Shown: positions 8,762 through 31,137, counted from the stretch's first letter. The stretch is DNA of 32,000 nucleotides from Halogeometricum borinquense DSM 11551 (GCF_000172995.2 NC_014731.1:270001-302000); one strand, 5' to 3'. A program made the numbers and translations. Notes: generated by a model from the sequence alone, not told the origin.

Positions 8762-8877
8762 GCCAACCACAACGTACACCACCCACAAAAAAATACCTAA
8801 GAATTATGATAGTTATGCCCAGTCCTGCCGCTACTGACCCAACCGAGCGTCGAAGCGACTGCGAGATTGATGACGGC

Positions 8878-12096: not shown

Positions 12097-12220
12097 CGGG
12101 AGAATCGTCGAACACTACTCACATCTTCCGGGTCGGGGTTGCCGCAGGTAGTAAGACTCTGTGTCGTCGCCGTAGAACCGCCGTTCGGAAACGAAGGGCC
12201 GCTCCTTATTCACTATTCAG

Positions 12221-13483
12221 TCAGCGGAAGGGACGACCCTCATTCGCGTACTTCACTGACGATGCGAAGATGTTGGCTGACATCATGTCCTCTGTCGCCT
12301 CTGCGCGTGCTTCGTAGACATTCGCCACGGCTGTCTGGACGGCCTCGTTCTCGGGGTCGGCCTCCAGCGCGTAGTCGGCGAGGTGACAGGCGAGGCGTTC
12401 GTCGCCTTCGTCGATGAGAGCTTCCGCCCGTTCAGCGAGCGTTTCGGCGTCGCCCGCGAGGTCGGCGATCTCCTCGGCGACGGCGCCGCGGCCGGCGGGT
12501 TTGAGTTCGCTTGGGCGACCGGTCCACCAGCCGCCGTAGTAGCGGATGACGTTCCGCGCGATAAATTCGCCACAGTCGTACTCCGACTGGAGCCAGGATT
12601 CCTCGGGGTCGGGGAGATCGATCTCGCGGACGATGTCGACATGCGGCGGGGCACCGTCGTTGAGTCTTTCGATGGTCTGATCCACGATGGTGTCGAGGTA
12701 CTCCGCATAGCGGAGCAACCGGTGTTCGGTCTTCTCGGGGTCGTTGACGATGGGTTCGCCGTGCCCCGGAAGAAGGGTCCCGGCGTTGAGGGCGGCCATC
12801 TCACGGAGTGCGTCCGCCCAATCCCACGGATAGCGCTGAACTTTTTGGGGGTTCCCCGCATTCGGCGCTGCTGCGGTGACGAGATCACCGGAACACAGTA
12901 CATCTCGGTCGGGACAGTAGAGCCACGTGTGGTCGTCGGTCTCACCGCGGGCGTGGTGGATCTCGAAGGTGGTGTCGCCGACCGTGATCGTGATGTCGTC
13001 GCTGTACCACGTTGTTGGTGGGTAGTTCGGCCAGCAGAACATGTCGTCCTCCCAGAGGCTGTGATACTCCGCGGCCGCCGGGTCGGCGGAGAGCTGACGT
13101 CCATTGATGATCTTGTTGTACTCCTCTGTCCGCGCGTAGCGGTCGAACCGTCCGGCCATCGCTTCGTGCGCGATCACGTTCGGAGGCTCTTGTCCCTCGA
13201 TAAGGAACTCATCAAGACCAAAGGCGTGGTCGGTGTGGCCGTGGGTGTAGATCGCCGTGTGGACCGGCGAATCAGTGTGTTCTCTGAGTGCCGTCGCCAG
13301 TTGTTGTGAGAGTTTGGAAAGCCCGGTATCGACCAGTACCAGTCCCTTTGCCGTATCGAATGCCGTCACGTTTGCGAACGACGTACACTGATAAGTGTCC
13401 TCAGCTACCTCGGTGATGTCGATCCCGCTGTCGAAGTTCTTGATGTCGAAAATACCGACCGCGTTCTCGGATTTCTGCGACAT
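12221..13483 (-). CDS. Type-III alkyl/aryl-sulfatase-like metallo-beta-lactamase fold hydrolase (MBL domain plus alkyl-sulfatase dimerisation domain, no C-terminal SCP2 domain)
   Basis: Contains the HxHxDH motif (IYTHGHTDHAFG). The C-terminal region IRYYGGWWTGRPSELKP...GDERLACHLADYALEADPENEAVQTAVANVYEARAEATEDMMSANIF parallels the SdsA1/YjcS dimerisation domain (RYLGWYDGNP...GDYRW...L..V.fADP.N..A..L.A.aYEQLGYQAE....RN.Y). The ORF is open up to a GTG at 13699, but that upstream part includes a duplicated gene-end remnant. The first ATG is 13483 (MSQKSENAVGIF). The start is uncertain. Confidence 0.8.
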   Translation of the reverse strand: MSQKSENAVGIFDIKNFDSGIDITEVAEDTYQCTSFANVTAFDTAKGLVLVDTGLSKLSQQLATALREHTDSPVHTAIYTHGHTDHAFGLDEFLIEGQEPPNVIAHEAMAGRFDRYARTEEYNKIINGRQLSADPAAAEYHSLWEDDMFCWPNYPPTTWYSDDITITVGDTTFEIHHARGETDDHTWLYCPDRDVLCSGDLVTAAAPNAGNPQKVQRYPWDWADALREMAALNAGTLLPGHGEPIVNDPEKTEHRLLRYAEYLDTIVDQTIERLNDGAPPHVDIVREIDLPDPEESWLQSEYDCGEFIARNVIRYYGGWWTGRPSELKPAGRGAVAEEIADLAGDAETLAERAEALIDEGDERLACHLADYALEADPENEAVQTAVANVYEARAEATEDMMSANIFASSVKYANEGRPFR

Positions 13484-13668
13484 GCTACCGCCGTACGTGC
13501 GTGGGTCAATAGCACCTTCTGCTTGGTATGATGGGGTAGTATATAAGTCGTGGCCGGGCCGGCGGAGGTAGGCAGGGGATGGGTAGGGTTCAACACGCCC
13601 GTCCGGTCCCACCCATTCTTCGGAGTGCGTCTTCGCTTTGCTTCGAACCGGCGGGTCAAACCGTTCCG

Positions 13669-13729
13669 TTAGCGGAAGGGAATCCTCGTTCGCGTACACG
13701 GTTGCCGACGAGAAGATGTTGTACGCTGG
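13669..13729 (-). pseudogene. Remnant of the last ~19 codons of a paralogous alkyl-sulfatase-like gene, with its stop codon frame-shifted out
   Basis: The minus-strand translation PAYNIFSSATVYANED/-PFR* aligns with the true C-terminus SANIFASSVKYANEGRPFR* encoded at 12221-12283. DNA identity is about 75%, with a 2-nt deletion relative to the intact copy. An in-frame TAG lies immediately upstream, at 13730-13732. Confidence 0.45.
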
Positions 13730-13776
13730 CTACGCCGGATGCGGGGGGGAGTCAGTGCTGACGCGTCCCGAACGGG

Positions 13777-14472
13777 TCATTTCCAGATTGACTGGGTAGG
13801 GTGAGTTTCTGTATCCCCGGAAGCCGTGAATAGGTCCGAAATCAGGTTGTTCTCGATCCGCTGGAGAATTTCCTGGACGTTCGCCTGACTACACTCGAAT
13901 TCCGCCGCAACGTCGTCGAGGGTGGCCTCCCGAGGTCGTCGGTAGTACCCGAGTTCGTAGGCTCTCCGAAGCACCTCTCGCTGGCGGTCGCTCAGTTTGC
14001 TGAGGCTGTCCTTTCTGCCCGGGTTGTGGGTTCCTACCCGCCCGACGGTCGTGTGGACGGAATCGGGGATTTGCTCGAACCCAGCGCTGATGTTCTCCTG
14101 AGGACCGATGATCGTAACTTCTACCCCTCCGTCCTCGTGCAGCAGTATTGGACTGTCGACGACGTAGCCGTACTCCTCCGGGAGTTGGAGTAGCCGCCTT
14201 GTGTCGCTCGACGGCTCAAAGTGGATGTACGCGGAGACGGATCCGTTGATCTTCGTCACCTCATGATCGGTCGCGGTCTTGTTGGCAGACAGGATCGCTC
14301 GAATCGCGTCGGCGTCACCTTTGAACTCGTACAGCATGACGGCCGTTCCGTCACGGAGGAGTTTCGCGGAGTGTATCATGACTGGCACTACTTCATCGTG
14401 GGCATGACACGTGTCTCCCAGTGATTGAAACCATCCATCTGAGTGCTTCAATCGGATGGTTGCGCACCACAT
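13777..14472 (-). CDS. Bat-type (HTH_10 / bacterio-opsin-activator-like) transcriptional regulator
   Basis: The C-terminus LSDRQREVLRRAYELGYYRRPREATLDDVAAEFECSQANVQEILQRIENNLISDLF is the canonical haloarchaeal HTH_10 domain. The ORF begins with TTG at 14493; the first ATG is at 14472 (MWCATIRLKHSDGW). Confidence 0.82.
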   Translation of the reverse strand: MWCATIRLKHSDGWFQSLGDTCHAHDEVVPVMIHSAKLLRDGTAVMLYEFKGDADAIRAILSANKTATDHEVTKINGSVSAYIHFEPSSDTRRLLQLPEEYGYVVDSPILLHEDGGVEVTIIGPQENISAGFEQIPDSVHTTVGRVGTHNPGRKDSLSKLSDRQREVLRRAYELGYYRRPREATLDDVAAEFECSQANVQEILQRIENNLISDLFTASGDTETHPTQSIWK

Positions 14473-14540
14473 GTGACTACAGAGGGGAAACAACCTCTTA
14501 AATCATGATTGTCCTTCGACAGTTGCCCTTGTGAGCGTTT

Positions 14541-17395: not shown

Positions 17396-18545
17396 CCGTT
17401 GATCCCTCTTTGACTGTCCTTCCTACACATTCTCTGTGTAGCATATTTTCTCGAAAATATTAGACTGGCTGTGGAATTCGGAGAACTGTATTCATAATGG
17501 GCCATCTCAACCACAAAAGTACTGATATATCTACAAATTCAGGGATGGGGGTGTAATTAGGTTACTGTATTTCATATATCAAGATATGTCTGTGTAATAT
17601 GCTAATATAAAATGGAATGTGGGTTGGACGATGACCAACTTGATCACTGGGGCTTGATTACTGTGGATTATCGCAATCGTGGCGTATACGTCGAAAATGA
17701 GAGTCGACTGTTTCCACAATTTATGGGTGAACGGTCAGGTGTGCGCTCGGTGGTGACTCGTAATCCACTACCTCCATGTAGCAGAACTCACTGTCAAGCA
17801 TTACAATAATATTGCTGTCACAGTATAAAATTCCAGTATAGATTCAAAATTACACTCGAGTTGGATTCGCCCCTGCAACGCTCTCGTTAGTTCGTCCCAC
17901 TCGCTTTTAGGTTTTGTTTGGACGCACGTCTCTCTATCTCACCGTGTACAGCGCCGGGAAAGGGGATCTAAAGTTGCTCTCGGGGTGTGTTGTAGACTGG
18001 CCGTTCGGCGGTTGATGGTTCATCGCGGCTAGTGCTGACTGTACTTCATGAACCGGAGATCGGACAGGCGTCTGGGCCATTACACAGGTATGATTGTAAT
18101 ATGGTACCTCTTGACGAGCCTGATCGTTCTCTGAGAGTAAGACAACCGGAACTTCTCTTTGATTTCGTAATACGAACGAATTGCTGCCAGTTCAGTAGTT
18201 ATCAGTTGGATCCACACTGTTTTGCCAAGACTGTTTCTGACACTCAAAATCGGGGATATCTGGAAGTATATCGCTTTTATCTCGCGTTTTAGGTTTTGCT
18301 GTCGTGACAAACAGCGATACCAATCTGTTACTATTACGAAATCCGCTATGGGCTGGGACGAGTCAGATGTTCATATCAACCAAGCCGTAGCTGATTCCAC
18401 GAGGTGAATTCAGGACACTATAGATATATGATATATAATATATTTGGCCATAGGATTATTATGCCATGTATGACAATGGCACTACAGGATACGTTCGGCA
18501 ATACTGCACACACGAGTGCAGTCGTCGAAAACGGTCCGATCAAGC

Positions 18546-20168
18546 ATGAAACAGAGTAGACGAGACTACCTACGGAACACGTCGGCCCTGTTTGCACTCC
18601 TCGGTGGTGCGGGCACGGCCGCAGCAGCAGAGACTCTCCCTAAATGGGACCCCGAAGCAACCTACACCGGCGGCGACCGCGTCACCCACGACGGCTATAT
18701 TTGGGAGGCCAAGTGGTGGACGAGAGGGACCGAACCGACCACCGACGCGAGCGTCTGGAAGCAGATCAAGCCGGTTGACGACGGTGGAGACGGTCCGAAA
18801 GCGTCGTTCACCGTGAGTGACCTCGTGATCAACCCCGGTGAAACAGTCGAATTCGATGCGAGTGGGTCCGGAGATACCGCTACCCAGTTCGATTGGGATT
18901 TCGGTGACGGAACGACTGGCTCCGGCGAAGTTGTCTCCCATACATACGAATCAGCGGGCGAGTACACGGTCACGCTGACTGTCACGGACGACTCCGGTGC
19001 GACCGGTTCGACGACGAAAGTCGTCACTGCGAGTGACGGCGGCATGCCGACGGACAAGCGCGTCGTCGGCTACTACATGCAGTGGGCACAGTGGGATCGC
19101 GAGTACACCCCCGGTGACATCCCGCTGGACAAGGTTACACACGTCAACTACGCGTTCCTGACCGTAAAGCAAGACGGGTCAGTTGCGTACATCAACGAGA
19201 ACGCGGCGATGCGGGTCCTCAAGCCCGAATCGTGGCACGACCACAAAGGATTCAACGAACTCGTTGACGACCCGACGACCAAGTTCCTGTTCTCCATCGG
19301 CGGTTGGAACGACTCGAAATACTTCTCGAACGCGGCCGAAACCGAAGCAAGCCGACAGCGCTTTGCGAAGACTGCCGTCGAGATCATGCGAGAACACAAC
19401 TTCGACGGCCTCGACATCGACTGGGAGTATCCCGGCGGTGGCGGAAAATCCGGGAACATCGTCCGCGACGGCGACAAAAAGCGCTACTCCGACCTGCTGG
19501 CTGCGGTTCGGGCCGAACTCGATGCTGCTGAAGAAGAGGACGGGCAGGAGTACCTGCTGACGACTGCGCTGTCTGCCGACCCGAAGAAAAACGAAGGCCT
19601 TGATCACCAGCGTAACACTGGTCTGCTCGACTTCGTGAACGTCATGACGTACGACTTCCACGGAGCGTTCGACGACTACACGAACCACCAGAGTCCGCTG
19701 TACTTCAAGGAGAACGATCCGTCCCCGCGGGCGGAAGACTTCAATGTCGATGCCGCGATGACCTACTGGGCGAACACCGCATTCGACAGCTCACAGCTCT
19801 CGATGGGGCTTCCGTTCTACGGTCGGAGCTTCGGGAACGTCGCCAGTAGTGATAACGGTGGCCTGTACCAGTCCTTCGAGGGGTCGCCCGACGGGACGTG
19901 GGGCCAGGACAACGGTATCATGGAGTTCTGGGATATCAACCAGAACCTCGAACCAAGCTCCGAGTACGAGTACTACTGGGACGATACGGCCAAAGTGCCG
20001 TGGATATACTCGGACAGCTCCGACGTACTCGTCAGCTACGACAATCCGAAGTCTATCGGCCTCAAAACGGACTACGCTGTCGATAACGACATCGGCGGGA
20101 TGATGTTTTGGGCGTTCTCGGGCGATAAAAACGAAGTGCTACTCGACACGCTCCTCGAACATCTCTGA
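18546..20168 (+). CDS. Secreted GH18 chitinase 1: Tat signal, CBM5/12 chitin-binding domain, PKD domain, classical GH18 catalytic domain
   Basis: The Tat motif is MKQSRRDYLRNTSALFALLGGAGTAAAA (the ORF opens at GTG 18516; ATG at 18546). The CBM5/12 signature is WDPEATYTGGDRVTHDGYIWEAKWWTRGTEP. The PKD signature is FDWDFGDGTTGSGEVVSHTYESAGEYTVTLTVTDDSG. The GH18 catalytic motif is FDGLDIDWEYP, with MTYDFHG and GGMMFWAFSGD. Confidence 0.93.
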   Translation: MKQSRRDYLRNTSALFALLGGAGTAAAAETLPKWDPEATYTGGDRVTHDGYIWEAKWWTRGTEPTTDASVWKQIKPVDDGGDGPKASFTVSDLVINPGETVEFDASGSGDTATQFDWDFGDGTTGSGEVVSHTYESAGEYTVTLTVTDDSGATGSTTKVVTASDGGMPTDKRVVGYYMQWAQWDREYTPGDIPLDKVTHVNYAFLTVKQDGSVAYINENAAMRVLKPESWHDHKGFNELVDDPTTKFLFSIGGWNDSKYFSNAAETEASRQRFAKTAVEIMREHNFDGLDIDWEYPGGGGKSGNIVRDGDKKRYSDLLAAVRAELDAAEEEDGQEYLLTTALSADPKKNEGLDHQRNTGLLDFVNVMTYDFHGAFDDYTNHQSPLYFKENDPSPRAEDFNVDAAMTYWANTAFDSSQLSMGLPFYGRSFGNVASSDNGGLYQSFEGSPDGTWGQDNGIMEFWDINQNLEPSSEYEYYWDDTAKVPWIYSDSSDVLVSYDNPKSIGLKTDYAVDNDIGGMMFWAFSGDKNEVLLDTLLEHL

Positions 20169-20227
20169 GGCACGCAGAAAAACAGCGAATACGCGGAGAG
20201 AGACTCGCAAACCCCCGCACAAACTGT

Positions 20228-20251
20228 GGCGCTCCCGTGGGATGGAGCGCC
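20228..20251 (+). terminator. Hairpin GGCGCTCC-N8-GGAGCGCC downstream of chitinase 1, followed by a T-rich tract
   Basis: Read directly: an 8-bp perfect stem at 20228-20235 and 20244-20251. The sequence ttaaattcttttaaaat begins about 15 nt downstream. It separates chitinase 1 from the promoter region of chitinase 2. Confidence 0.35.
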
Positions 20252-20454
20252 GAATAGCGGCTGTTAAATTCTTTTAAAATAAACTAAAACTTATCTGCCA
20301 CAATATTTAATAATAACTGGTAAGTACAGACTCCGTCGCCAGCAAGTCGGTGAGGATGTGCAAATCGGGGGAGGCCACAGGGTTTCCGAGCAGCGCTCTC
20401 AAAAGAGAGCGATTTCGACCGAAGCACGACTCACTGACGAGGGCGGCAACACCC

Positions 20455-22167
20455 ATGAGACAGAGCAGACGAAGCTACCTACGGAATACGTCAGCCCTGC
20501 TCGCACTCCTTTCGGGGGCGAGCGCAACCGCATCGGCAGCAGAAACACCGCCAGCGTGGGAACCCGACGTTGCGTACACGGGTGGAGACCGGGTCACTCA
20601 CGACGGTTATATTTGGGAGGCCAAGTGGTGGACGAAAGGCGACGAACCAACCACCGACGCCAACATGTGGAAGCAAATCGGAGAGGCCGGCGGTGGAGGC
20701 GGCCTCAAGGCGTCGTTCACTGTGAGCGACTCCTACGTCGAGCCGGGTGTCGAGGTCGCGTTCGACGCAAGCGGGTCCAGTGGAAGCCCAACGAGTTACC
20801 AGTGGGACTTCGGCGACGGAACGACCGGCTCCGGAAAAACCACGTCGCATACCTACGAGTCGGAACAGGAGTATACGGTCACGCTCACCGTCGAAAACGA
20901 GGACGGAAGTGACACGACATCGAGACAACTCACCGTCTCGCAGAATGCGCCGTCGGACGAGTTTAGCGTCGTCGGTTACTATCCGAGTTGGAAGGGCAAC
21001 GAGGACTATCAGTACTATCCTGAGGACATACCCTTCGATAAGGTAACAGACGTACTGTACGCGTTCCTCAACGTCAAGTCGGACGGCAGTGTGGTTATTC
21101 CGGACAGCAATGTCGATCACGAGGGCCTGCTCCAGTCGTTTGCCGACCTCAAGCAGGGTCCAGCGTCGGATACGACGCTCAAACTCTCCATCGGTGGCTG
21201 GGCACTTTCACCCGGCTTCGAAGACGCCGCTGCGACCGAGGAGAACCGGACGAGATTCGCGGAGACCGCAGTCGCGCTCATGCAGAAGTACGACTTCGAC
21301 GGCATTGACATCGACTGGGAGCACCCCGGTCCGAACAGGGGGATCTGCGAGTGCGGAAGTCAGAAAGGCCCGGCGCACCACGTCAAACTCCTCAAAGCTG
21401 TTCGGGATAAACTCGACGCTGTCGAGGAAGAAGACGGGCGGACGTACTACCTCTCGGTCGCAAACGGCGGCTCTGATTGGAACGCCGCGCTCGTCAAGCA
21501 CCGCGAGGTCGAACGCGTCGTCGATGAAATCTACATGATGGCGTACGATTTCACCGGCGTCTGGCACCAGACAGCCGGCCTGAACGCGCCCATCTACGGT
21601 ACTCCGAAGGACTACCCGCCGGATGGTGACGCCCAGCAGTACACCGTCGAAACGACGCTCGAAATCTGGAAAGAGCAGGGATACTGGGTCGATTGGATGC
21701 AGTGGGAAGATTACGGAGAACCGGTCGAAGACCCCGCGAGTCTCGTCCTCGGACTCCCGTTCTACGGCCGTGGCTGTAAGGTCGAAAACGGGATTTGGGA
21801 CACCTTCTCGCTAGCCGAGTGGCAACAGGGCGACCCGAAGCATCAAAACGAAGTTATCCCGCCGGGAACGTGGAATCACCTGCTCGGCCCCGACCAAGCC
21901 AATACCGGCGCGTTCGACTACGGCGACCTCGAAGAGAACTACGAGGGTGCAGACGGCTGGGAGAAGAACGTCAACGAGCAGGGTCAGGTACCGTGGCTCT
22001 GGAACGAAGAGAAGGGAATATTCATCAGTTACGACGACCCCGCATCCATCGAAGAGAAGGTCAAACTCGCCCAATCGGAAGGTCTCGGCGGCGTCATGTT
22101 CTGGGAACTATCACAGGACTACAACGGGACGCTTCTCGACGCTATCCACGGGCAGATAAACCAATGA
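20455..22167 (+). CDS. Secreted GH18 chitinase 2: Tat signal, CBM5/12, PKD, classical GH18 catalytic domain
   Basis: The Tat motif is MRQSRRSYLRNTSALLALLSGASATASA (ATG at 20455; the ORF is open from 20350). CBM5/12 is WEPDVAYTGGDRVTHDGYIWEAKWWTKGDEP. PKD is YQWDFGDGTTGSGKTTSHTYESEQEYTVTLTVENEDG. The GH18 motif is FDGIDIDWEHP, with MAYDFTG and GGVMFWELSQD. Confidence 0.93.
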   Translation: MRQSRRSYLRNTSALLALLSGASATASAAETPPAWEPDVAYTGGDRVTHDGYIWEAKWWTKGDEPTTDANMWKQIGEAGGGGGLKASFTVSDSYVEPGVEVAFDASGSSGSPTSYQWDFGDGTTGSGKTTSHTYESEQEYTVTLTVENEDGSDTTSRQLTVSQNAPSDEFSVVGYYPSWKGNEDYQYYPEDIPFDKVTDVLYAFLNVKSDGSVVIPDSNVDHEGLLQSFADLKQGPASDTTLKLSIGGWALSPGFEDAAATEENRTRFAETAVALMQKYDFDGIDIDWEHPGPNRGICECGSQKGPAHHVKLLKAVRDKLDAVEEEDGRTYYLSVANGGSDWNAALVKHREVERVVDEIYMMAYDFTGVWHQTAGLNAPIYGTPKDYPPDGDAQQYTVETTLEIWKEQGYWVDWMQWEDYGEPVEDPASLVLGLPFYGRGCKVENGIWDTFSLAEWQQGDPKHQNEVIPPGTWNHLLGPDQANTGAFDYGDLEENYEGADGWEKNVNEQGQVPWLWNEEKGIFISYDDPASIEEKVKLAQSEGLGGVMFWELSQDYNGTLLDAIHGQINQ

Positions 22168-23603
22168 AGCGGAATCGGCGCTCACTACTCCAGTCTCTGG
22201 CGGGACTCGCCGGAGTTTCCGGTCTTTCAGCGGTCGGCGTCCAGTCTGTGGCGGCCAGCGACCCGCCGCAGTGGGACCCCGATACGGTCTACACCGACGG
22301 CGACCGCGTCGTCCACGACGCCCACATTTGGGAAGCAAAGTGGTGGACGAAAGGCGACGAGCCGACCGCCGACGCCAACATGTGGAAGGGAATCGGACCG
22401 GCGGACGGTATCGGTGATTCACCGACGGCCGCGTTCGATCTGAGCGCCACGTTCGTCCAACCCGGAACTGAAATCACGTGTGACGCCAGCGCGTCAACCG
22501 GTGATCTGAGCAGCTACGAGTGGGATTTCGGTGATGGGACGACAAAGACCGAACTCACCACTTCCCACACGTACGACACGACCGGCGAGTACACTATCTC
22601 GTTGACCGTCACCGACGCCGACGGGAACACCGCCGACGCGACGCAGAAACTTACAGTCGATGCCGACGGTGTCCCATCGGCAAACTCCATTCCGGACAGC
22701 GTCTTTGCTCCGTACACCGATCTGATGCTGGAAGATCAGCGCTCGCTCGCGGCCAACGTCGAGGCGGCCGGAACGAAGTACTTCACGCTCGCGTTCGTCC
22801 TCGCCGATGGGGATAACGAACCTGCGTGGGCCGGAAGCCAGAAGGTCGGTGAACCGAGCAACTGGCTCGATGTCGGTACGCAACTCACCGAACTCAGAAA
22901 CCAACACGGTGGTGAGGTAATCGTCTCCTTCGGCGGTCTCAACGGGACGTACCTCGCGGAAGCCATCACGAGCGCAAGCGAGTTGAAAGACGCCTACGCT
23001 ACGGTGGTCGATACGTACGATCTCACGTTCATCGACTTCGACGAGGAGTCGCTTATCAGCCGCGACGAGGAGGGAATACGTCGCCGGAACGAAGCGCTGG
23101 TCATGTTGCAGGAAGAGTATCCCGACCTACGCGTGTCGTACACACTCCCAGTCATGCCGTCGGGGTTCCCCGATCACTCCTCGAACGACGTGCTGTACGT
23201 CCTCGAGGACGCCGTCTCGAAAGGCGTCGAACTCGAAGCTGTCAACCTTATGGCCATGGACTACGGCGCTGACATCAAGCCGAACGGCGAAAACGCAATC
23301 AGCGCGGCCGAGAACGTCCACACGCAACTCGGTGAGCTCTATCCCGACAAGTCAGCTTCCGAACGCTGGAGTATGATCGGACTCACACCGATGATCGGTG
23401 TCAACGACATCGGCGGGACGTTCTATCAAGAAGCTGCCCAGCAGGTGCGTGAGTTCGCACAGCAAAACGACCTCCGATGGCTATCGTTCTGGGAACTCGT
23501 CCGCGATAACGGTGAGGGAGACAAACTCTACGAGAGTACCCTCATCGAGCAGGAACCGTTCGAATTCTCGTCCATCTTCAATCCATTCACAACCCAACAA
23601 TGA
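22164..23603 (+). CDS. Secreted GH18 chitinase 3: Tat signal, CBM5/12, PKD, compact PF-ChiA-like GH18 catalytic domain
   Basis: The start ATG at 22164 overlaps the stop of chitinase 2 (ATGA). The Tat motif is MKRNRRSLLQSLAGLAGVSGLSAVGVQSVAA. CBM5/12 is WDPDTVYTDGDRVVHDAHIWEAKWWTKGDEP, and the PKD motif is present. The catalytic part has YFTLAFVLADGDNEPAWAG, VIVSFGGLNGTYLAE, the DxDxE motif in LTFIDFDEES, RVSYTLPVMPSGF and VNLMAMDYG. This pattern matches the Pyrococcus/Thermococcus ChiA-like GH18 subgroup. Confidence 0.9.
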   Translation: MKRNRRSLLQSLAGLAGVSGLSAVGVQSVAASDPPQWDPDTVYTDGDRVVHDAHIWEAKWWTKGDEPTADANMWKGIGPADGIGDSPTAAFDLSATFVQPGTEITCDASASTGDLSSYEWDFGDGTTKTELTTSHTYDTTGEYTISLTVTDADGNTADATQKLTVDADGVPSANSIPDSVFAPYTDLMLEDQRSLAANVEAAGTKYFTLAFVLADGDNEPAWAGSQKVGEPSNWLDVGTQLTELRNQHGGEVIVSFGGLNGTYLAEAITSASELKDAYATVVDTYDLTFIDFDEESLISRDEEGIRRRNEALVMLQEEYPDLRVSYTLPVMPSGFPDHSSNDVLYVLEDAVSKGVELEAVNLMAMDYGADIKPNGENAISAAENVHTQLGELYPDKSASERWSMIGLTPMIGVNDIGGTFYQEAAQQVREFAQQNDLRWLSFWELVRDNGEGDKLYESTLIEQEPFEFSSIFNPFTTQQ

Positions 23604-25021
23604 CACAAGACCGTCGAAGCTACCTTCGGAACGTATCAGCACTCATCACGTCGGTTGCTGGCGTGAGCGCAGCATCAACTACGGTATCGGCCGAATCGCC
23701 GCCAAAATGGGACGAAACCACGCTGTATCAGAAAGGCGACCGAGTTACCCACGAGGGCTACATCTGGGAAGCCGATATCGCCTCACGAAACGCCGAACCG
23801 TCCACGGGGTCTGCCTACTGGACGAAAGTCGGTGACGACGGGGGCGGCGGTGGCGAGGACTTGACGGCGGCATTTACTGTCAGTGACTCCACCGTCACGC
23901 CGGGGACGTCAGTCTCGTTCGACGCCAGTGAATCCACTGGAACAATCGAGAGCTACGATTGGTCCTTCAGTGACGGCGCAAGCGCAACTGGCAAAACCGT
24001 CTCACACTCGTTCGCATCGACTGGTTCGTATATGGTCAAACTCACCGTCGCCGGAGCAGACGGTGGGACCGATACGACGGATAAGACCGTCACCGTCGAA
24101 TCAGCGGACGACGGAGGCGAAACTCCAACAGGAAGCCTCCCGTCAAACGTCTTCGCACCGTACGACCACGTCTCGACGAACTCGACGACGGCACCGATAG
24201 ACCACGCCGAAAAGGCGGGAACGAACTACTTCCATCTCGCCTTCGTCCTCGCAGGACCGGATGGGAAACCGGCGTGGGACGGCGATTCGAACCAACTCGT
24301 CGGTGACTCGTCTGTTGACGGCTATATCAACGACATTCACGATGCTGGCGGCGAGGCCATCATCGCCTTCGGTGGGGCGGCAGGTCCGTATCTCGCCGAC
24401 GGAACCGACGACCCGGAAGTTCTTGCCGACCGCTTCGAGACGGTCGTCGATGCATACGATGCGACCCATCTGGACATCGACGAGGAGGCGTTCGCTATGA
24501 GTACAGTCAAGCGTCGAAACAAGGCGCTCGCAACGCTTCAGGAGCGACGCCCCGAGGTCAGCGTCTCATTCACCCTGCCGACATCAACGAAGGGGCTGAC
24601 CGCACAGGGCAAAGACGTGCTTCAGGACGCCATCGACAAGGGAGTCACCATCGATACGGTGAACATCATGACGATGAACTACGGCTGGGTCGAACCGAGC
24701 GGTGACATCGTGACCAAGTCGGCCAGCAACCTTCACGACGATCTTGCCGACCTCTTCCCGGATAAATCGGCTGACGAACGCTGGAGTATGGTCGGAATCA
24801 CACCGATGATTGGTGTGAATAACGTCGGCGGGAAGTTCACGCAATCCGATGCAAAGCAGGTTCTCACCTTCGCGCAGGACAACGACATCGGCCTACTGTC
24901 GTTCTGGTCTATCGACCGAGACAACGGGAACGGATCCGGGGAGGTATCGCCCACGAAGAGCGGCATCGAACAGGAACCGTACGAGTTCTCGTCCATCTTC
25001 AACCCGTTCACGAGCGAGTGA
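23600..25021 (+). CDS. Secreted GH18 chitinase 4: Tat signal, CBM5/12, PKD, compact PF-ChiA-like GH18 catalytic domain
   Basis: The start ATG at 23600 overlaps the stop of chitinase 3 (ATGA). The Tat motif is MTQDRRSYLRNVSALITSVAGVSAAST. CBM5/12 is WDETTLYQKGDRVTHEGYIWEA, and PKD is YDWSFSDGASATGKTVSHSFASTGSYMVKLTV. The catalytic part has YFHLAFVLAGPDGKPAWDG, AIIAFGGAAGPYLAD, HLDIDEEAF, VSFTLPTSTKGL and VNIMTMNYG. The C-terminus IEQEPYEFSSIFNPFT is nearly identical to that of chitinase 3. Confidence 0.9.
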   Translation: MTQDRRSYLRNVSALITSVAGVSAASTTVSAESPPKWDETTLYQKGDRVTHEGYIWEADIASRNAEPSTGSAYWTKVGDDGGGGGEDLTAAFTVSDSTVTPGTSVSFDASESTGTIESYDWSFSDGASATGKTVSHSFASTGSYMVKLTVAGADGGTDTTDKTVTVESADDGGETPTGSLPSNVFAPYDHVSTNSTTAPIDHAEKAGTNYFHLAFVLAGPDGKPAWDGDSNQLVGDSSVDGYINDIHDAGGEAIIAFGGAAGPYLADGTDDPEVLADRFETVVDAYDATHLDIDEEAFAMSTVKRRNKALATLQERRPEVSVSFTLPTSTKGLTAQGKDVLQDAIDKGVTIDTVNIMTMNYGWVEPSGDIVTKSASNLHDDLADLFPDKSADERWSMVGITPMIGVNNVGGKFTQSDAKQVLTFAQDNDIGLLSFWSIDRDNGNGSGEVSPTKSGIEQEPYEFSSIFNPFTSE

Positions 25022-25114: not shown

Positions 25115-25858
25115 TCAGAGCAATTCTTTGGTCCGACGAACTGTCCCGAGCACCATCCCTGGAATGTTTTCTTCGAGCCGTTTGTTACTCAATCGGTCGG
25201 CGTGGCCGACAACGTACACGGCGGCTACCTCGCCGTCGTGTTCGAATGCGACTGCGACTCCGTTTTGGTCCGTGCGTTGTTCTCCTCGCTCAATGGCAAT
25301 GCCGCGCTCGCGGATATTCGACAAGTCGCCTGCGAGCACATCCGCGTCTGTGATCGTGTTGTCCGTGCGCGCGGGAAGGCCGGCAGCGTCGAGAACGTCC
25401 TCAACCTGCTCGTCAGAGAGATGTGCCAGAATCGCTTTTCCCGGCGCAGTACAGTGGAGGTGTTCGTCTATTTCGACTGTCTCAGAGCTGTCACTGGTCG
25501 ATTGGTAGAGGTTGACGCCGTAGGAGCCTTGCTTAACGAAGAGTCCCGCGGTCTCGTTGGTCGTCTCGGCCAGTTGGTCGATCAGTTCGTTCGAGGTGCG
25601 GTACAGCGGAGAGCGTCCCCGGATACGGGTTCCGAACAGGACGAATCGGTACGACAGTGAGTATTCCACGCCAACCTTTCTGACGTATCCGAGTTCGCGC
25701 AGCGTCGCGAGATGCTTATAGGTCGTACTTCGTGTGAAGTCGAGTTCGTCGGCCAGAGCCGAGACACCAACCGGACCGTCACGGTCCGCCATCGCTTCGA
25801 TGAGGGCGAACGTCTTTTTCGGCGCGGAGAGCGTCGGCACCTGACTCCATTCTGTCAT
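25115..25858 (-). CDS. IclR-family transcriptional regulator
   Basis: 247 aa, ATG at 25858. The N-terminal wHTH is KKTFALIEAMADRDGPVGVSALADELDFTRSTTYKHLATLRELGYVRK. The C-terminal IclR effector domain has TDNTITDADVLAGDLSNIRERGIAIERGEQRTDQNGVAVAF. Confidence 0.9.
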   Translation of the reverse strand: MTEWSQVPTLSAPKKTFALIEAMADRDGPVGVSALADELDFTRSTTYKHLATLRELGYVRKVGVEYSLSYRFVLFGTRIRGRSPLYRTSNELIDQLAETTNETAGLFVKQGSYGVNLYQSTSDSSETVEIDEHLHCTAPGKAILAHLSDEQVEDVLDAAGLPARTDNTITDADVLAGDLSNIRERGIAIERGEQRTDQNGVAVAFEHDGEVAAVYVVGHADRLSNKRLEENIPGMVLGTVRRTKELL

Positions 25859-26050: not shown

Positions 26051-26674
26051 TCAGCCGTTGGCGAACTGACCGATCTGGGTGTCTGATTCACCGATAGTCG
26101 TCTCCGCAACGGTACGTCGTACTGTCGTCATGCTACATTTTCCGGGTGCATACCGGCCAAGATCCGCGACCGAACCGGCGTCGTCGATATCGGCGAGGAT
26201 GGTCGCCATCGGGAAGTCGTGTGTGACCACGAGCACTTGCTCGTCTGCGTTCGAACGCTCGCAGAGTCGCTCCCATCGATCAAGTACGCGCGCACGTCCG
26301 TCTGCAAGTGGCTCCCCACCGCGCGGGAGTGGCTGTAGTACATCTACGTCAGTGTCAAGGTCGTCTGTCATGCCATCACCGAGTTCGTCGTATGCGAGGC
26401 CTTGGAACACGCCCGCATCGCGGGGACGCCACGCGGCTTCGAATTGCGGACGCGGTCCGAGGCCGGTCAGACGAACGAGTGCGGCCGTTTCCCGGGCAGC
26501 CATTGTATCTGCGGCGTACATCCGGTCGAAGTCGTACTGTGACGCCAATCGTCGGCCGATGGCCGTCACCGAATCGTATCCCGTCTCTGTCAGCGGAACT
26601 GGTACGTGTCCGTGGAGTCGGTTCTGGCGGTCCCACTCGGTCTGTCCGTGCCGTAGCAAAACGATGTCTGTCAT
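26051..26674 (-). CDS. Histidine phosphatase superfamily protein (phosphoglycerate-mutase-like)
   Basis: The RHG motif sits at the N-terminus when translation starts at ATG 26674 (MTDIVLLRHGQTEWDRQNRLHGH). A second catalytic His region is VLVVTHDFP. The ORF track extends to 26782, but that extension overlaps comA and lacks any motif. Confidence 0.85.
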   Translation of the reverse strand: MTDIVLLRHGQTEWDRQNRLHGHVPVPLTETGYDSVTAIGRRLASQYDFDRMYAADTMAARETAALVRLTGLGPRPQFEAAWRPRDAGVFQGLAYDELGDGMTDDLDTDVDVLQPLPRGGEPLADGRARVLDRWERLCERSNADEQVLVVTHDFPMATILADIDDAGSVADLGRYAPGKCSMTTVRRTVAETTIGESDTQIGQFANG

Positions 26675-26745
26675 ATCTGGTGCTGTAAATCGCTGTCTCG
26701 CTCGTGAGCGGTCTCTCACGAGGCTCTCACGACAGTACTCGGGTG

Positions 26746-27573
26746 TTATTCTGACCGTGTGAAGGTCGTCGTTCGCCCCCAACTCGTCGCTTTACCCCAC
26801 AATCCCGAGCGCATGCATTCGAGTTCGACGATCTGAGAGTTATCGACGAAGAGGTTCACGTTCGGCCCGAAGTTTTTGATGTACCACTCGAACATCTCCG
26901 GACCAGGTGCCTCGAACACGAGGTTCTCCATTCCCAGTTCGTTGGCGAGTTCGTAGACGACATCCGTACGCCACTCGTGGACTTCTTCGGTGATTCCCTC
27001 TGCTTCGACCATCAGAAGATCAGCACCGGCTTCGAGATGACGTTGCCCTTCTCGGATCGCCATCGACGGGTCCTGTTGACCTTCTCGTTCTAACTCGTCT
27101 GGGTCGGATGCACCGCCCGCGCCGAACTGGACGTTGATCTCGGGTTTCGGTTTGAGATTATAGTCGGCAACTAGTTCGGTCAGCGAGACCAGATCGTCAG
27201 TGTCGATAGCCAGAAAGCCACTCGAGATTTCGACGATATCGAATCCAAGCTTCTCGGCTTCGGCGACGTACGCTTCGACTTTGTCGTTATCCCGCACGAG
27301 GACGTTTTCGATGAAGCCTCCTGTCGAAACATCCACGTCGTATTCGTGGCAGATGTCGATTAGCTCGGTGACGGTGGACTGATCCATCAGCGCAAACGAT
27401 CCACCGCTGAATTTGTAGATATCGACGTACCGTCCCATCGTCTCTAGAATATCGCGCAACTCTCGCGGTCCCATGGGGTCGTAGTACGGACCTCGAATCT
27501 CGGTGATTCCCTTTGTTCGTGGTTTCGGCGGCCGGTCGTTGACGTGGAGGAAGTCGAACGCTCTCTCTGACAT
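26746..27573 (-). CDS. comA: (2R)-phospho-3-sulfolactate synthase family protein (ComA)
   Basis: 275 aa, ATG at 27573. The N-terminus FLHVNDRPPKPRTKGITEIRGPYYDPMGPRELRDILETMGRYVDIYKFSGGSFAL and the later FDIVEISSGF follow the conserved ComA (PF02679) pattern (KPR..G.T...D.G.....l.d.L...g.yiD..K...Gt; f...EvSdG). Confidence 0.88.
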   Translation of the reverse strand: MSERAFDFLHVNDRPPKPRTKGITEIRGPYYDPMGPRELRDILETMGRYVDIYKFSGGSFALMDQSTVTELIDICHEYDVDVSTGGFIENVLVRDNDKVEAYVAEAEKLGFDIVEISSGFLAIDTDDLVSLTELVADYNLKPKPEINVQFGAGGASDPDELEREGQQDPSMAIREGQRHLEAGADLLMVEAEGITEEVHEWRTDVVYELANELGMENLVFEAPGPEMFEWYIKNFGPNVNLFVDNSQIVELECMRSGLWGKATSWGRTTTFTRSE

Positions 27574-27607
27574 GTGTATTCGGTGCTACAACCCGCACCT
27601 ATTTCAA

Positions 27608-27625
27608 TTTTAGGGCGACCTAAAA
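27608..27625. promoter_or_regulatory. 18-bp palindrome TTTTAGG-GCGA-CCTAAAA overlapping the comA core promoter
   Basis: Read directly. It lies 35-52 nt upstream of the comA ATG (27573) and abuts the AT-rich TAAAATTGAAATA stretch, which is in the right place for a TATA box. It is one of three copies of the same palindrome in this cluster. Confidence 0.55.
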
Positions 27626-27696
27626 ATTAGAACGGCCAAAGAGTCACCGCTAAAGCGACGATATGAACTGTCAGACCGCGATTGCAGTCTCCCGAC

Positions 27697-29049
27697 TTAG
27701 TTCAGGAGTTCGACCAGTTCGGTGATTTCGTGTTCTTCGAGGTGCTTTACGGTATGGACGATTTCGTCACGACGCTGTTGGTCGTACCGGCCGCTGGTCA
27801 TCGTCTCGAACTTTTCTTCGACTTGTTCCCAATCCATCGGATTGTTCGGGTGGCCTTGGAAGTCGTCCTTTTGAACCTCGTGGGTTGTACCGTCGTCGAG
27901 CGTCACCGTAATGTTCGCGGGCATCTCGCCCGACTCGAAACGCTCGGTTAGTTTCGGGTCTTCCTCGACTGTGACCGTCCTGAGCAGTGATTGAACGTCG
28001 TCGCGCTGGATTCGTTCCGGATCGTAGGCGTCGTTCGTCATCTCGCGGTCGATCAACGCTGCCGCAAGCATGTACGGTAACGAGTGGTCCGCCTGTGCTT
28101 TCGTCTCGACCTCATAGCGTGATCCCTCTCCGCCGCCGATGATCAGTTTCGCTCCGTGGAACGTGTCAAGGTGAATCTCTTCGACCTGTTCGGCCTCGAT
28201 TTTCTCTCTCTCTGCGAGTTCGATGAGACCCTCGACGGCTGACTGGGCGTACGTTTCGGCGACGTAGCGTTTCGTCATCGTATCGAACACGCGCTCGCAG
28301 TTCGGATCGAGTTCGACGTCGAAGTCACCGCTGATGATCTGTTTCCAGCCTTTTTGTCCCTCGAAGAGGTTCTTCGGACCCTCCATCCCGTTGGCGGCTA
28401 ACAGACAGGAGTATACCGCATTGCGTGCGGCGTTGGCGCTGGCGATTCCTTTCCACTCGTTGATTCCGCCAGTTCGAGTTACTCGAAGCGCGTTATGTGC
28501 GGTTCCAGCGATGCCGACGGCGTTACGCAGTTGCTCGTGGTTGAGTCCGAGAATCGAACCGGCGCCTGCGGCGGCCGAGAGCACAGTGTGCGTGACGTGA
28601 TCCCAACCTTTGTCCCGAACCGGCGCATTCCAGGCGAGTTCGCCCTGCAACTCGTAAGCGACGCCGACGGCTTCTATGAGATCCTTCCCCGACGCACCGG
28701 TCTGCTCACCACAGGCGATGATACTGCCGATATTGTCGCTCGGATGGGGTGTCTCTCCCGGTGCGAGAAACGAATCCATATAATCCAGATATCGGGTTAA
28801 TGCCGTGTTGTGCATGGCGGCCTGCGGTGCCGACGCGCTTGCATCCCGACCCCAGAGCGTGCAGGAACCGCTTTCGTCTACCCCGGAAACCGTCTCAAAA
28901 ACGACTTCGACGGGTTCCGCCCCGAGTGCGCCAATGCCAATTCCCACGGAGTCGAGAACGCGCTTTTTGAGTTCCTCGACTACCTTTTCGTCAAAATTGT
29001 CGTAGTTGGCTGCCTCAACAAACTCTGCAATCGACTGTGTCGTTGCCAT
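27697..29049 (-). CDS. MmgE/PrpD-family protein (2-methylcitrate dehydratase-like fold; substrate unknown)
   Basis: 450 aa, ATG at 29049. The N-terminus AEFVEAANYDNFDEKVVEELKKRVLDSVGIGIGAL, the central HPSDNIGSIIACGE, and the overall length and composition are characteristic of MmgE/PrpD proteins. Confidence 0.88.
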   Translation of the reverse strand: MATTQSIAEFVEAANYDNFDEKVVEELKKRVLDSVGIGIGALGAEPVEVVFETVSGVDESGSCTLWGRDASASAPQAAMHNTALTRYLDYMDSFLAPGETPHPSDNIGSIIACGEQTGASGKDLIEAVGVAYELQGELAWNAPVRDKGWDHVTHTVLSAAAGAGSILGLNHEQLRNAVGIAGTAHNALRVTRTGGINEWKGIASANAARNAVYSCLLAANGMEGPKNLFEGQKGWKQIISGDFDVELDPNCERVFDTMTKRYVAETYAQSAVEGLIELAEREKIEAEQVEEIHLDTFHGAKLIIGGGEGSRYEVETKAQADHSLPYMLAAALIDREMTNDAYDPERIQRDDVQSLLRTVTVEEDPKLTERFESGEMPANITVTLDDGTTHEVQKDDFQGHPNNPMDWEQVEEKFETMTSGRYDQQRRDEIVHTVKHLEEHEITELVELLN

Positions 29050-29288: not shown

Positions 29289-30560
29289 ATGCGTATGCTG
29301 AGAGAAACTTCGACACGAAGAGACGTTCTCAAGGGCGGCAGTGCACTCATTGGGAGTGGATTCCTCGCCGGTTGCACCAGTAGTGGACAGTCTACACCTC
29401 CCTCCGATTCGACATCATCAGACTCCTCGAGGGGGACCTCAACCGATACTGCGACAACTGAGCAGTCCTATTCGGTGTCGCTTGATCCGGTCGGAACGAT
29501 CCCCTTCGAGCAACCACCCGAAACGGTCGTTAGCGGTTGGGGATTTGTCGGTGACGTGTTGATGGCGCTCGGGCAAGCCGACCGTATCGTCGGGATGTCC
29601 CGACCTGGTTTCTGGTTTCAAGGGTTCTACGAACTTCTTCCGGGCGTCTCAATGCGTGATACGACCGCGATCCCCAACACCGTCTCGAAGGGGTACAGTC
29701 TCAACGAGGAGTTGCTCTACGAACTCGACCCGGATCTGCTGGCAACGGATCCCAACCGATTCATCGCATGGTATGGGAGTGATACCGCGACCGTCGAGTC
29801 ACTCGTTGACGACATCGCGCCGTTCTTCGGCAACGAAAGCCGATCGAAACGTCCCTCTGGATGGCCGAACTGGCCGACTGGTGAGGACTACGACTACTAC
29901 GCTATCCCAGAGTTTGTCGAGCGATACGGACAGGTCTTTCAGGAGCAAAAGCGTGCCACGGCGATGGTAGACCTCTACGAAACCACTCTTGACGATATCA
30001 CATCACGTCTCCCACCGCTGGACGAGCGCCCGACCGTTGGTGTACTGAGTGCGTTCACGAATCCGGAGAACAGCGGTCACTTCGGCGTCTCCAACCCGAT
30101 TCCCGCTCTCGATGCGACCCACGAACTCAAACACTACGGGGACTTGGGAGTTGTTGACGCGTTCGCGGAGCAGTACGGGGAGGAAAGAGGCCATTACGAT
30201 CTCACAGTCGGCTTCGAAGGGCTGCTTGCGGTTGACCCGGACGTTCTGATCTTCGATGAGGCGGTGAACGCACTCGGCGGACAGACCGTCTACGGAAACA
30301 CGAAAGCCTACGAGCGGACCCTCGAACTTCTCCGTACCGACGATATCGGCCAGCGACTCACCGCAGTCCAAAACGACCGGTTGTATCCCGGCGGAACGGG
30401 ATCACAGGGGCCGATTATTAATCTCTTCCAGACCGAAATGCTCGCAAAACAGCTGTATCCAGCGGAGTTCGGTCCGTGGCGCGGACTCGGTGAGACGCCT
30501 ACGGACGAGCAACTGTTCGACCGTCAACGGGTTGCAGACATCATCAACGGGGATCTCTGA
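29289..30560 (+). CDS. ABC-transporter substrate-binding lipoprotein (Tat signal plus lipobox; FecB/BtuF-like periplasmic-binding-protein class)
   Basis: MRMLRETSTRRDVLKGGSALIGSGFLAGCTSS contains a twin-arginine motif and an LAGC lipobox, followed by a Ser/Thr-rich linker. The body (LDPDLL..., VDPDVLIFDE, LTAVQNDRLY) resembles cluster-A siderophore/cobalamin-type binding proteins. No permease or ATPase gene is adjacent. The start may be 29295. Confidence 0.82.
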   Translation: MRMLRETSTRRDVLKGGSALIGSGFLAGCTSSGQSTPPSDSTSSDSSRGTSTDTATTEQSYSVSLDPVGTIPFEQPPETVVSGWGFVGDVLMALGQADRIVGMSRPGFWFQGFYELLPGVSMRDTTAIPNTVSKGYSLNEELLYELDPDLLATDPNRFIAWYGSDTATVESLVDDIAPFFGNESRSKRPSGWPNWPTGEDYDYYAIPEFVERYGQVFQEQKRATAMVDLYETTLDDITSRLPPLDERPTVGVLSAFTNPENSGHFGVSNPIPALDATHELKHYGDLGVVDAFAEQYGEERGHYDLTVGFEGLLAVDPDVLIFDEAVNALGGQTVYGNTKAYERTLELLRTDDIGQRLTAVQNDRLYPGGTGSQGPIINLFQTEMLAKQLYPAEFGPWRGLGETPTDEQLFDRQRVADIINGDL

Positions 30561-30579: not shown

Positions 30580-31137
30580 TTACTCGAAGCGGTTCGATAT
30601 CGTCTCTTCGTCGGGCGTCCAGCCGATGAACTCGCCACCCTCGAACGGGAGATCGATGGAGGCGATATAGTTGCACAGTCCGACGTAGAAGTCCACGAGG
30701 AGGCCGAGCGCAACAATCTCGGGCGGTGAGTACTGCCGAGTGAGTGCCTCGTGTATCTGGTCGGTGACTGTTCCGGATTCGACGGCCCGAGCGTACTGGA
30801 GCAGGACGTACTCGGTGTCGTCGAACACTGAGAGGTCACCGCCACCGATCGCTTGCATTTCCTCGACTGTAACGCCCTTGTCGCGGGCGATATCGACGTG
30901 TTGGTGCCACTCGTAGCGAGCGCCGCGAGCCCTTGCGACGGTGAGGATCACCAGTTCTTTGCGTCTCTCTCCGAGTTGATCGTACAGCGTGTTCAAATAC
31001 TCCAGCGTCGCTTCGAGAACTTCGGGGTTGTGCGCCCATGCACGGAAGATGTGGCGGTCGCCCAGATAGTCGTCGCTGAACAGGTAGTGGTACTCCTCCG
31101 GGATTTCGTCTAACTCAAGTAGCGGAAGTCGTGACAT
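30580..31137 (-). CDS. Carboxymuconolactone decarboxylase (CMD/AhpD-like) family protein
   Basis: 185 aa, ATG at 31137. RKELVILTVARARGARYEWHQHVDIARDKGVTVEEMQAI matches the CMD-family core (re...l.va...g..yew..H...a...Glt.eei.ai). Confidence 0.82.
   Translation of the reverse strand: MSRLPLLELDEIPEEYHYLFSDDYLGDRHIFRAWAHNPEVLEATLEYLNTLYDQLGERRKELVILTVARARGARYEWHQHVDIARDKGVTVEEMQAIGGGDLSVFDDTEYVLLQYARAVESGTVTDQIHEALTRQYSPPEIVALGLLVDFYVGLCNYIASIDLPFEGGEFIGWTPDEETISNRFE

Follow-up and report, generated by a model that had tools for sequence, protein, structure and literature searches.

Organization of the locus

The subject of this analysis is a 32,000-nucleotide stretch of the genome of Halogeometricum borinquense DSM 11551 (GCF_000172995.2, NC_014731.1:270001-302000), hereafter the window, whose positions are counted from its first letter, and within it three consecutive genes encoding an MmgE/PrpD-family protein (PrpD-like), a protein matching the phosphosulfolactate synthase family (ComA-like), and a histidine phosphatase (Table 1). 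A first-pass annotation, made from the sequence alone, had described them as a comA-centred operon of a haloarchaeon in which the phosphatase would stand in for ComB. Comparison with related loci shows that the conserved unit is the pair formed by the PrpD-like gene and an HSA32-type ComA-like gene, and that the phosphatase is not part of it.

The open reading frames (ORFs) and their Pfam matches bear out the gene trio, its strand and its family assignments, and the haloarchaeal premise holds, the ComA-like protein of the window being 100% identical to a protein of H. borinquense DSM 11551. The PrpD-like and ComA-like genes are separated by 123 nt. The mechanical ORF of the phosphatase spans 26782-26051 and opens with a TTG codon inside the ComA-like gene; the ATG at 26674 gives MTDIVLLRHGQTEW, places the RHG motif at its usual N-terminal position and agrees with the homologues from Halorientalis pallida (L001) and Halovenus rubra (L002). 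With this start, the gap of 71 nt between the ComA-like stop (26746) and the phosphatase, as first reported, is confirmed.

Table 1. Genes and sequence elements at the locus, in positions of the window
Feature	Position	Strand	Description
MmgE/PrpD-family gene	29049-27697	minus	450 residues; both MmgE/PrpD domains (Pfam)
ComA-like gene	27573-26746	minus	275 residues; HSA32-type ComA-fold TIM-barrel by sequence; public annotation, phosphosulfolactate synthase
Histidine phosphatase gene, phosphoglycerate-mutase superfamily	26674-26051	minus	207 residues from the ATG; Pfam His_Phos_1
Peripla_BP_2-type substrate-binding protein gene	29289-30560	plus	product secreted or lipid-anchored; divergent from the PrpD-like gene; Pfam E 2.5e-11
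IclR-family regulator gene	25115-25858	minus	3' of the phosphatase gene; Pfam HTH_IclR and IclR_C; neighbour only
Palindrome TTTTAGGCTCGCCTAAAA	29053-29070		putative operator; ends 3 nt before the PrpD-like ATG
Palindrome TTTTAGGGCGACCTAAAA	27608-27625		putative operator; 34 nt 5' of the ComA-like ATG
Palindrome TTTTAGGCTGGCCTAAAA	29264-29281		putative operator; 7 nt 5' of the divergent binding-protein ATG
Stem-loop	26701-26722	minus	in the ComA-like/phosphatase gap; 8-bp stem CUCGUGAG/CUCACGAG

The PrpD-like and ComA-like genes form a widespread pair

The haloarchaeal survey took one genome per species and comprised 80 loci, 79 of them labelled Halobacteria and one belonging to a metagenome-assembled genome labelled Nanohalarchaeota. 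The PrpD-like gene lies 5' of the ComA-like gene on the same strand in 68 of the 80 loci, mostly directly adjacent to it, an arrangement far beyond chance and an association much stronger than the first-pass annotation could know. De novo clustering of the approximately 1,060 genes of these loci revealed no other family present in more than 14 loci, and the 41 immediately flanking same-strand genes belong to Pfam families that are essentially all different.

Furthermore, the pair is found outside the haloarchaea. A tblastn search of plasmid records detected relatives of the ComA-like protein at 52-57% identity in Salinibacter ruber, Methylosinus trichosporium OB3b and Methylocystis, with a gene for an "MmgE/PrpD family protein" directly 5' in each (plasmids pSR116 of Salinibacter and pOB3b2 of Methylosinus, the latter pair being bounded by insertion sequence elements). 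A search seeded with the Methylosinus protein disclosed a large group in bacteria, with members in Methylocystis, Bradyrhizobium, Mesorhizobium and Xanthobacteraceae, and the pair is also present in Bradyrhizobium ORS86 and on one metagenome contig. Scanning of metagenomes gave 80 further loci, 55 of which have enough upstream sequence; the PrpD-like gene stands directly 5' in 33 of these and within 5 kb in 36, and de novo clustering of the 1,523 ORFs of the 80 loci returned no general partner except the PrpD-like gene. On a probably thaumarchaeal contig (L096), the two genes are adjacent and convergent. The partners diverge in step, with identities of 44, 43 and 34% for the PrpD-like protein and 57, 52 and 43% for the ComA-like protein in Salinibacter, Methylosinus and L096, respectively. 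Order and strand are kept in Halobacteria, Salinibacter and Hyphomicrobiales while the surroundings change.

The symbiosis plasmid p53363 of Bradyrhizobium guangxiense (L092, 1-3750) carries a trio of overlapping genes for PrpD, PrpF and a distant ComA-like protein (23% identical), the ComA-like gene being the last. PrpF-family proteins isomerise aconitates, and this trio is an independent recurrence of the association of PrpD with the ComA fold, with an aconitate-isomerase-family gene in between. The Salinibacter ruber pair on pSR116 (L081, 5225-15280) is accompanied by two DsrE-family genes, a DUF302 gene, a long formate/nitrite-transporter-family (FNT) gene, Dps and a "phosphoenolpyruvate hydrolase family" gene, a sulfur- and phosphoenolpyruvate (PEP)-flavoured context not seen in the other loci.

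Two further possibilities were considered and set aside. A fusion of the PrpD and ComA-like genes was looked for, and the sole long ComA-like protein (P0294, 862 residues) is fused to a fungal transcription-factor domain instead. As to anti-phage defence, some genomes have Abi, restriction and toxin-antitoxin genes close to the cassette, and no PADLOC model matches any of the three proteins.

Assignment of the ComA-like protein to the HSA32-type clade

The ComA-like protein matches the Pfam ComA family (PF02679) over profile positions 1-242 of 243 (258 bits for a cutoff of 25; E 9e-77) and the M. jannaschii structure 1qwg in the Protein Data Bank (PDB; E 1e-15). It scores 103 bits on the archaeal ComA equivalog model (NCBIfam TIGR03849, arch_ComA), below the cutoff of 280, and shares 25-28% identity (52-80 bits, BLASTP) with canonical ComAs, among them M. 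jannaschii ComA, B. subtilis YitD, Xanthobacter XcbB and the Brevibacillus ComA whose gene adjoins comB. By the same method, the plant heat-memory factor HSA32 of Phoenix dactylifera reaches 38% identity and 198 bits. An exhaustive phmmer search of protein-cluster representatives retrieved plant HSA32 at 41% identity (E 2e-51), together with Fusarium proteins at 48% and Nitrososphaeraceae proteins at 44%. Conversely, the BLASTP identity of HSA32 is 38-43% with the proteins of the window, Salinibacter and Methylosinus and 20-24% with canonical ComAs. A neighbour-joining tree sets the canonical ComA group apart from an HSA32-like clade that holds the window protein, and a name look-up attached the name HSA32 to a protein cluster of this clade. 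Across haloarchaeal genera, the ComA-like proteins are 74-93% identical.

Examination of the residues agrees with this grouping. Five canonical ComAs, verified or supported by context, were aligned and numbered as in M. jannaschii (Mj). Positions T76, K137, D157, R170-E171-S172-G173, K209, Q212 and N227 are invariant in all five. In the window protein, K137 is replaced by Gln, D157 by His, K209 by Pro and Q212 by Phe, N227 is absent, R170 is replaced by Glu, and E171-G173 are deleted within a six-residue alignment gap. Three of the cationic residues invariant in canonical ComAs are thereby gone. The HSA32-like clade likewise has Gln at 137, Pro at 209 and Phe at 212, the RESG motif deleted and no N227. 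Of the missing residues, K137 and R170 are presumably active-site residues in 1QWG, which is taken here as a lead. The family core is kept in the window protein and its clade (D40, K43, E79, E103, S105, E133, E168, E205 and R240), and GG74-75 is common to the window protein and canonical ComAs. The invariants of the HSA32-like clade include K143-P144 before the strand-5 Glu, a GITE motif, F228, W230 and W259; the window protein shows the full signature, including the deletion of RESG and an insertion after strand 5, which forms a Gly-rich loop.

On these grounds the middle gene is assigned to the HSA32-type clade and not to canonical phosphosulfolactate synthases, and its first reading as comA is not supported, with at least seven invariant positions gone. 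With three cationic residues lost and aromatic ones gained, the pocket seems to have been remodelled rather than the enzyme inactivated. Since the core residues are shared with canonical ComA, the window protein probably also uses metal-assisted enolate chemistry as ComA does.

The PrpD-like partner

Both MmgE/PrpD domains are present in the partner (Pfam MmgE_PrpD_N, E 7e-77; MmgE_PrpD_C, E 9e-48), which lies far under all equivalog cutoffs for 2-methylcitrate dehydratase (197, 150 and 118 bits for cutoffs of 950, 575 and 458, respectively). In a PDB search, cis-aconitate decarboxylases (CADs) came out best (E 5e-27), then PrpD (E 1e-23), with iminodisuccinate epimerase close. The catalytic and binding residues listed for human CAD (PMC6789909) were located by HMMER alignment: D93, H103, H159, K207 and K272, which are conserved in all characterised MmgE/PrpD members, are all identical in the PrpD-like protein. 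The residues specific to CAD are not kept, T97 being a Ser, H277 a Glu, and Y318 falling in an alignment gap. Characterised members of this family protonate or deprotonate C2 of 1,4-dicarboxylates through an enolate, and the family has been reported to be absent from plants (PMC12290011). The PrpD-like proteins constitute an orthologous group of their own that accompanies HSA32-type genes, with identities of 58-83% within Halobacteria and 42-44% in Salinibacter and Hyphomicrobiales.

The phosphatase is a recent accessory gene

The only Pfam match of the phosphatase is His_Phos_1 (E 2e-30), and its motif LLRHGQTEW (residues 6-14, with RHG at 8-10) places it in branch 1 of the histidine phosphatase superfamily. 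It reaches no NCBIfam equivalog, the nearest being alpha-ribazole phosphatase (71 bits for a cutoff of 163). A homologue follows the pair solely in Halorientalis pallida, Halovenus rubra and Halorientalis litorea (L098), besides the window; none was found in the other 78 haloarchaeal loci or in any of the 80 metagenome loci. The ComA-like proteins of these three genomes are 91-93% identical to that of the window. The phosphatase is therefore a recent accessory gene of one sub-lineage, and the occurrence of this sub-lineage in both Haloferacaceae and Haloarculaceae suggests that the cassette was transferred as a whole. Of the co-conservation in Halobacteria that the first-pass annotation had called for, the part joining the PrpD-like to the ComA-like gene stands, and the part concerning the histidine phosphatase fails, so that its role as a ComB substitute is not supported on this count.

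The phosphatase gene has no palindrome of its own (see below) and is probably co-transcribed with the ComA-like gene. No terminator-like site was detected in the 71-nt gap by a bacterial-type scan, a method unsuited to archaea whose promoter and terminator counts were at the level of shuffled sequence. The stem-loop of Table 1 lies in this gap; the fold of the 74-nt gap holding it has a free energy of -20.4 kcal/mol (z = -3.2), no T-run follows it, and the three related genomes do not share its sequence.

Other phosphoesterases occur beside the ComA-like gene. A metallophosphoesterase (Metallophos) gene is found directly 3' of it in Natronococcus and two Natrialba species, and a gene of the IMPase family abuts it in L096, which brings to three the number of unrelated phosphoesterase families at this place, in three lineages. 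These neighbours lend weak but real support to a phosphorylated intermediate, and to that extent the first-pass proposal stands. ComB itself gave no match by tblastn in the window or in 1.9 Mb of related-locus flanks, as the first-pass annotation had expected of the vicinity. ComC, ComDE and an XcbC-type lyase did not recur among the annotated or clustered neighbours, where they were not searched for directly.

A palindrome shared by the upstream regions of three genes

The palindrome TTTTAGG-N4-CCTAAAA occurs in three perfect copies in the 32-kb window and nowhere else in it, for 0.00 expected. In L001, L002 and L098, the same palindrome stands in two copies 5' of the PrpD-like gene and is also found 5' of the ComA-like gene, about 30 nt from it in L001 and L002 and as one copy in L098. 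It is absent from the remaining haloarchaeal cassettes surveyed. Because each of the two genes has its own copy, the PrpD-like and ComA-like genes are probably expressed as separate but co-regulated transcripts, which replaces the simple three-gene operon of the first-pass annotation. The divergent binding-protein gene is probably co-regulated with them; it does not adjoin the pair in other lineages. In Halorientalis pallida, five tandem Peripla_BP_2 paralogues lie just 3' of the cassette (L001, 10743-16693), are 34-41% identical to the binding protein of the window, and the first of them is preceded by two copies of the palindrome.

The adjacent IclR gene was considered as the source of the palindrome-binding regulator and rejected: the cassettes of L001 and L002 have no homologue nearby, and one weak match was obtained among the 80 loci. 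In L098 no annotated product suggests an IclR gene, several genes there being "hypothetical" and not having been searched. A NikR-type gene is located near the cassette in L001. In two other haloarchaeal genomes, the palindrome stands 24-73 nt 5' of a gene judged by reading of the sequence to be of HTH_10 type (L017, 12987-13741; L026, 4797-5552), at most 8 kb from the respective ComA-like genes, and a weak homologue with a Pfam HTH_10 match is encoded at 13777-14493 of the window. The HTH_10-type family is a candidate for the palindrome-binding protein.

Other features of the window

Upstream in window coordinates, positions 18516-25021 encode four tandem secreted proteins with CBM5/12 and PKD modules, the first two with GH18 chitinase domains and the last two with C-terminal domains that have no Pfam match and resemble each other. 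Positions 7694-14493 may form an alkyl-sulfate utilisation island, with an SdsA-type alkyl sulfatase (12221-13699), an MFS transporter, an aldehyde dehydrogenase, a zinc alcohol dehydrogenase and an HTH_10 regulator; such an island would release sulfate, not sulfite, and is unlinked to the cassette in other genomes. On the other side, a gene of the carboxymuconolactone-decarboxylase (CMD, AhpD-like) family (30580-31137) adjoins the binding-protein gene. Genes that look AhpD-like by sequence are near the ComA-like gene in 9 of the 80 bacterial metagenome loci, together with alpha/beta-hydrolase, phosphoribosyltransferase and DUF488 genes recognized in the same way. This neighbourhood may represent a stress-island context.

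A proposed two-enzyme module and its alternatives

We favor, as mildly probable, the view that the PrpD-like protein and the HSA32-type ComA-fold protein, encoded in this order, constitute a horizontally mobile two-enzyme module working on one small anionic acid. Since the chemistry of both families proceeds via an enolate beside a carboxylate, the two enzymes would take up this acid one after the other. The PrpD-like enzyme, of dehydratase, decarboxylase or epimerase type, would make or consume a double bond or a stereocentre on a 1,4-diacid-like backbone, and the HSA32-type lyase would then attach a group to the neighbouring carbon or eliminate one from it, in the manner of ComA with sulfite and PEP. 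The remodelling of the pocket would speak for a substrate or nucleophile other than PEP and sulfite. Where the phosphatase is present, it would remove a phosphate from the substrate or the product, and a PEP-derived phosphoester would therefore stay in play for this lineage, in which the module has gained the phosphatase gene and an operator-like palindrome that also precedes the binding-protein gene.

Several observations weigh against this view. The ComA-like gene has no nearby PrpD-like gene in about 35% of the metagenome loci, in a Mesorhizobium locus and in Nitrososphaeraceae loci, and plants possess HSA32 but no MmgE/PrpD proteins, so that the ComA-like protein can work, or at least persist, alone. 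The probable separation of the two transcripts in the window also counts against it. The sulfur-related neighbours of two genomes, namely the two DsrE genes and the FNT transporter of Salinibacter and cysK of Haloferax mediterranei, hint at sulfite chemistry.

The sulfite chemistry is taken at face value in the explanation of the first-pass annotation, according to which the middle gene encodes a true phosphosulfolactate synthase, the phosphatase replaces ComB, and the PrpD-like enzyme acts on sulfolactate, for instance by epimerisation or dehydration, for the purpose of sulfite detoxification or of making a sulfonate solute. The strong Pfam match and the retention of the acidic core speak in its favor, as do the probable co-transcription of the phosphatase with the ComA-like gene, the unrelated phosphoesterases at the same place in Natrialba, Natronococcus and L096, and the lack of a nearby ComB. 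The DsrE, FNT and PEP hydrolase family genes of Salinibacter and cysK of Haloferax mediterranei would fit too, and since PrpD-family substrates are 1,4-diacids, sulfolactate, an isostere of malate, could mimic one. The phosphatase, however, occurs in 4 of about 165 surveyed loci; K137, R170-E-S-G, K209, Q212 and N227 are absent from the ComA-like protein, which stays at 103 of the 280 bits required by the ComA equivalog model; and the flanks yield neither ComB nor, among recurring neighbours and short of a direct search, ComC, ComDE or an XcbC-type lyase. We regard this explanation as unlikely. The canonical reaction of PEP with sulfite is, for the window protein, possible but unproven, and both the changed residues and the missing downstream partners known from other ComAs count against it.

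In another route, the PrpD-like enzyme acts first and makes an alpha,beta-unsaturated di- or tricarboxylate from an acid of the tricarboxylic acid cycle (for example cis-aconitate, or itaconate by decarboxylation), and the HSA32-type enzyme joins sulfite, or some other nucleophile, to this product. Itaconate, CH2=C(X)-COO-, is isosteric with PEP; the PrpD-like gene is the first of the two everywhere; its closest structural relatives by sequence are the CADs; and the PrpD, PrpF and ComA-like trio of the Bradyrhizobium plasmid is in line with such a route, as would be the three lost cationic residues if a less charged group took the place of the PEP phosphate. This route draws on chemical analogy alone, the CAD-specific residues H277, T97 and Y318 are not kept, the phosphatases are left unexplained, and we know of no natural sulfonate of this kind, so that it appears quite improbable. 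Least probable of all is a non-catalytic role in which the prokaryotic ComA-like protein would be, like HSA32, mainly a structural or chaperone-linked stress factor, its link with PrpD being incidental to enzymology. It shares a clade with HSA32, and stress-type genes are found nearby (Dps in Salinibacter, DJ-1/catalase and Csp in Bradyrhizobium, and, as judged by reading of the sequences, CMD/AhpD-like and DUF488 genes in metagenomes). Yet all the shared acidic, Lys and Arg positions are kept in the prokaryotic members, which are very strongly conserved (74-93% identity across haloarchaeal genera), core substitutions being confined to the plant sequence, and catalysis is also what the close pairing with an enzyme of intact catalytic set points to.

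The favored two-enzyme module can be carried one step further. The pair could be a self-contained mobile pathway that joins a central carboxylate (e.g. cis-aconitate via itaconate) to sulfite or another nucleophile and gives a new sulfonated or phosphorylated acid, serving as a stress protectant or a sulfite sink, with the same chemistry, or its loss in plants, underlying the heat-memory role of HSA32. In this extended form the proposal is very improbable, and is offered as a speculation.

Significance and comparison with known systems

No publication linking ComA or HSA32 with PrpD was found, which agrees with the statement of the first-pass annotation that the combination is not a described pathway, and the literature search found no paper on haloarchaeal ComA homologues. 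The families themselves are familiar; the pair as a dedicated unit, how widely it occurs and how it relates to HSA32 seem not to have been described. In organisms without coenzyme M, the label "phosphosulfolactate synthase (CoM biosynthesis protein A)" is attached to thousands of prokaryotic genes. The present analysis indicates that many of them sit in a separate clade with a remodelled active site, usually with a dedicated PrpD-family partner, and the label is therefore probably wrong, or at least unproven. Furthermore, HSA32, the heat-memory factor of plants, falls in the same clade as the window protein, and what it does at the molecular level has been an open question since 2006. Because its prokaryotic orthologues have a partner enzyme and occur in genetically tractable hosts, such as Haloferax mediterranei (pair HFX_RS16230 and HFX_RS16225) and Methylosinus trichosporium, they make this question directly accessible to biochemistry. 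If the pair does make or degrade a new sulfonate, a step would be added to the organosulfur cycle of hypersaline and soil habitats.

With the MmgE/PrpD family (2-methylcitrate dehydratase, CAD/IRG1, iminodisuccinate epimerase and methylsuccinate isomerase), the PrpD-like protein has in common both domains and the five family-wide residues; it differs in reaching no PrpD equivalog and in its changed CAD-specific residues. The methylcitrate cycle combines, in one pathway, a PrpD-family (de)hydratase and PrpB, an Mg2+-dependent TIM-barrel lyase that handles a carboxylate enolate. The likeness to the present pair is one of working principle only, PrpB being a member of the isocitrate lyase/PEP mutase superfamily and not of the ComA family, and no homology is implied.

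The comA-comB genes of Bacillus and Brevibacillus (yitD-yitC) resemble the window locus in that a ComA-family gene is followed by a phosphatase gene, whereas the phosphatase there is of the ComB family and the synthase a canonical ComA, and here a His_Phos_1 protein (in four genomes) follows an HSA32-type protein. The characterized ComA/XcbB enzymes (MJ0255, 1QWG; B. subtilis YitD, 1U83; Xanthobacter XcbB) share with the window protein the family PF02679 and, by sequence, the TIM-barrel fold. Their partners differ from the PrpD-like one, being encoded by a ComB gene in Brevibacillus and consisting of fumarase-type lyases in Xanthobacter.

Plant HSA32 has in common with the window protein the deletion of RESG and the long loop after strand 5 that has been described in the literature. 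In the Phoenix dactylifera protein (P0266, one plant cluster), the core carries the substitutions G75 to D, S105 to N, E133 to Q and E168 to D (Mj numbering), at positions otherwise invariant across the ComA fold, and plant HSA32 may be a pseudoenzyme or have an altered chemistry. The known role of HSA32 is to stabilise HSP101; the plant literature states that its molecular function is unknown and mentions a distant homology to archaeal ComA only.

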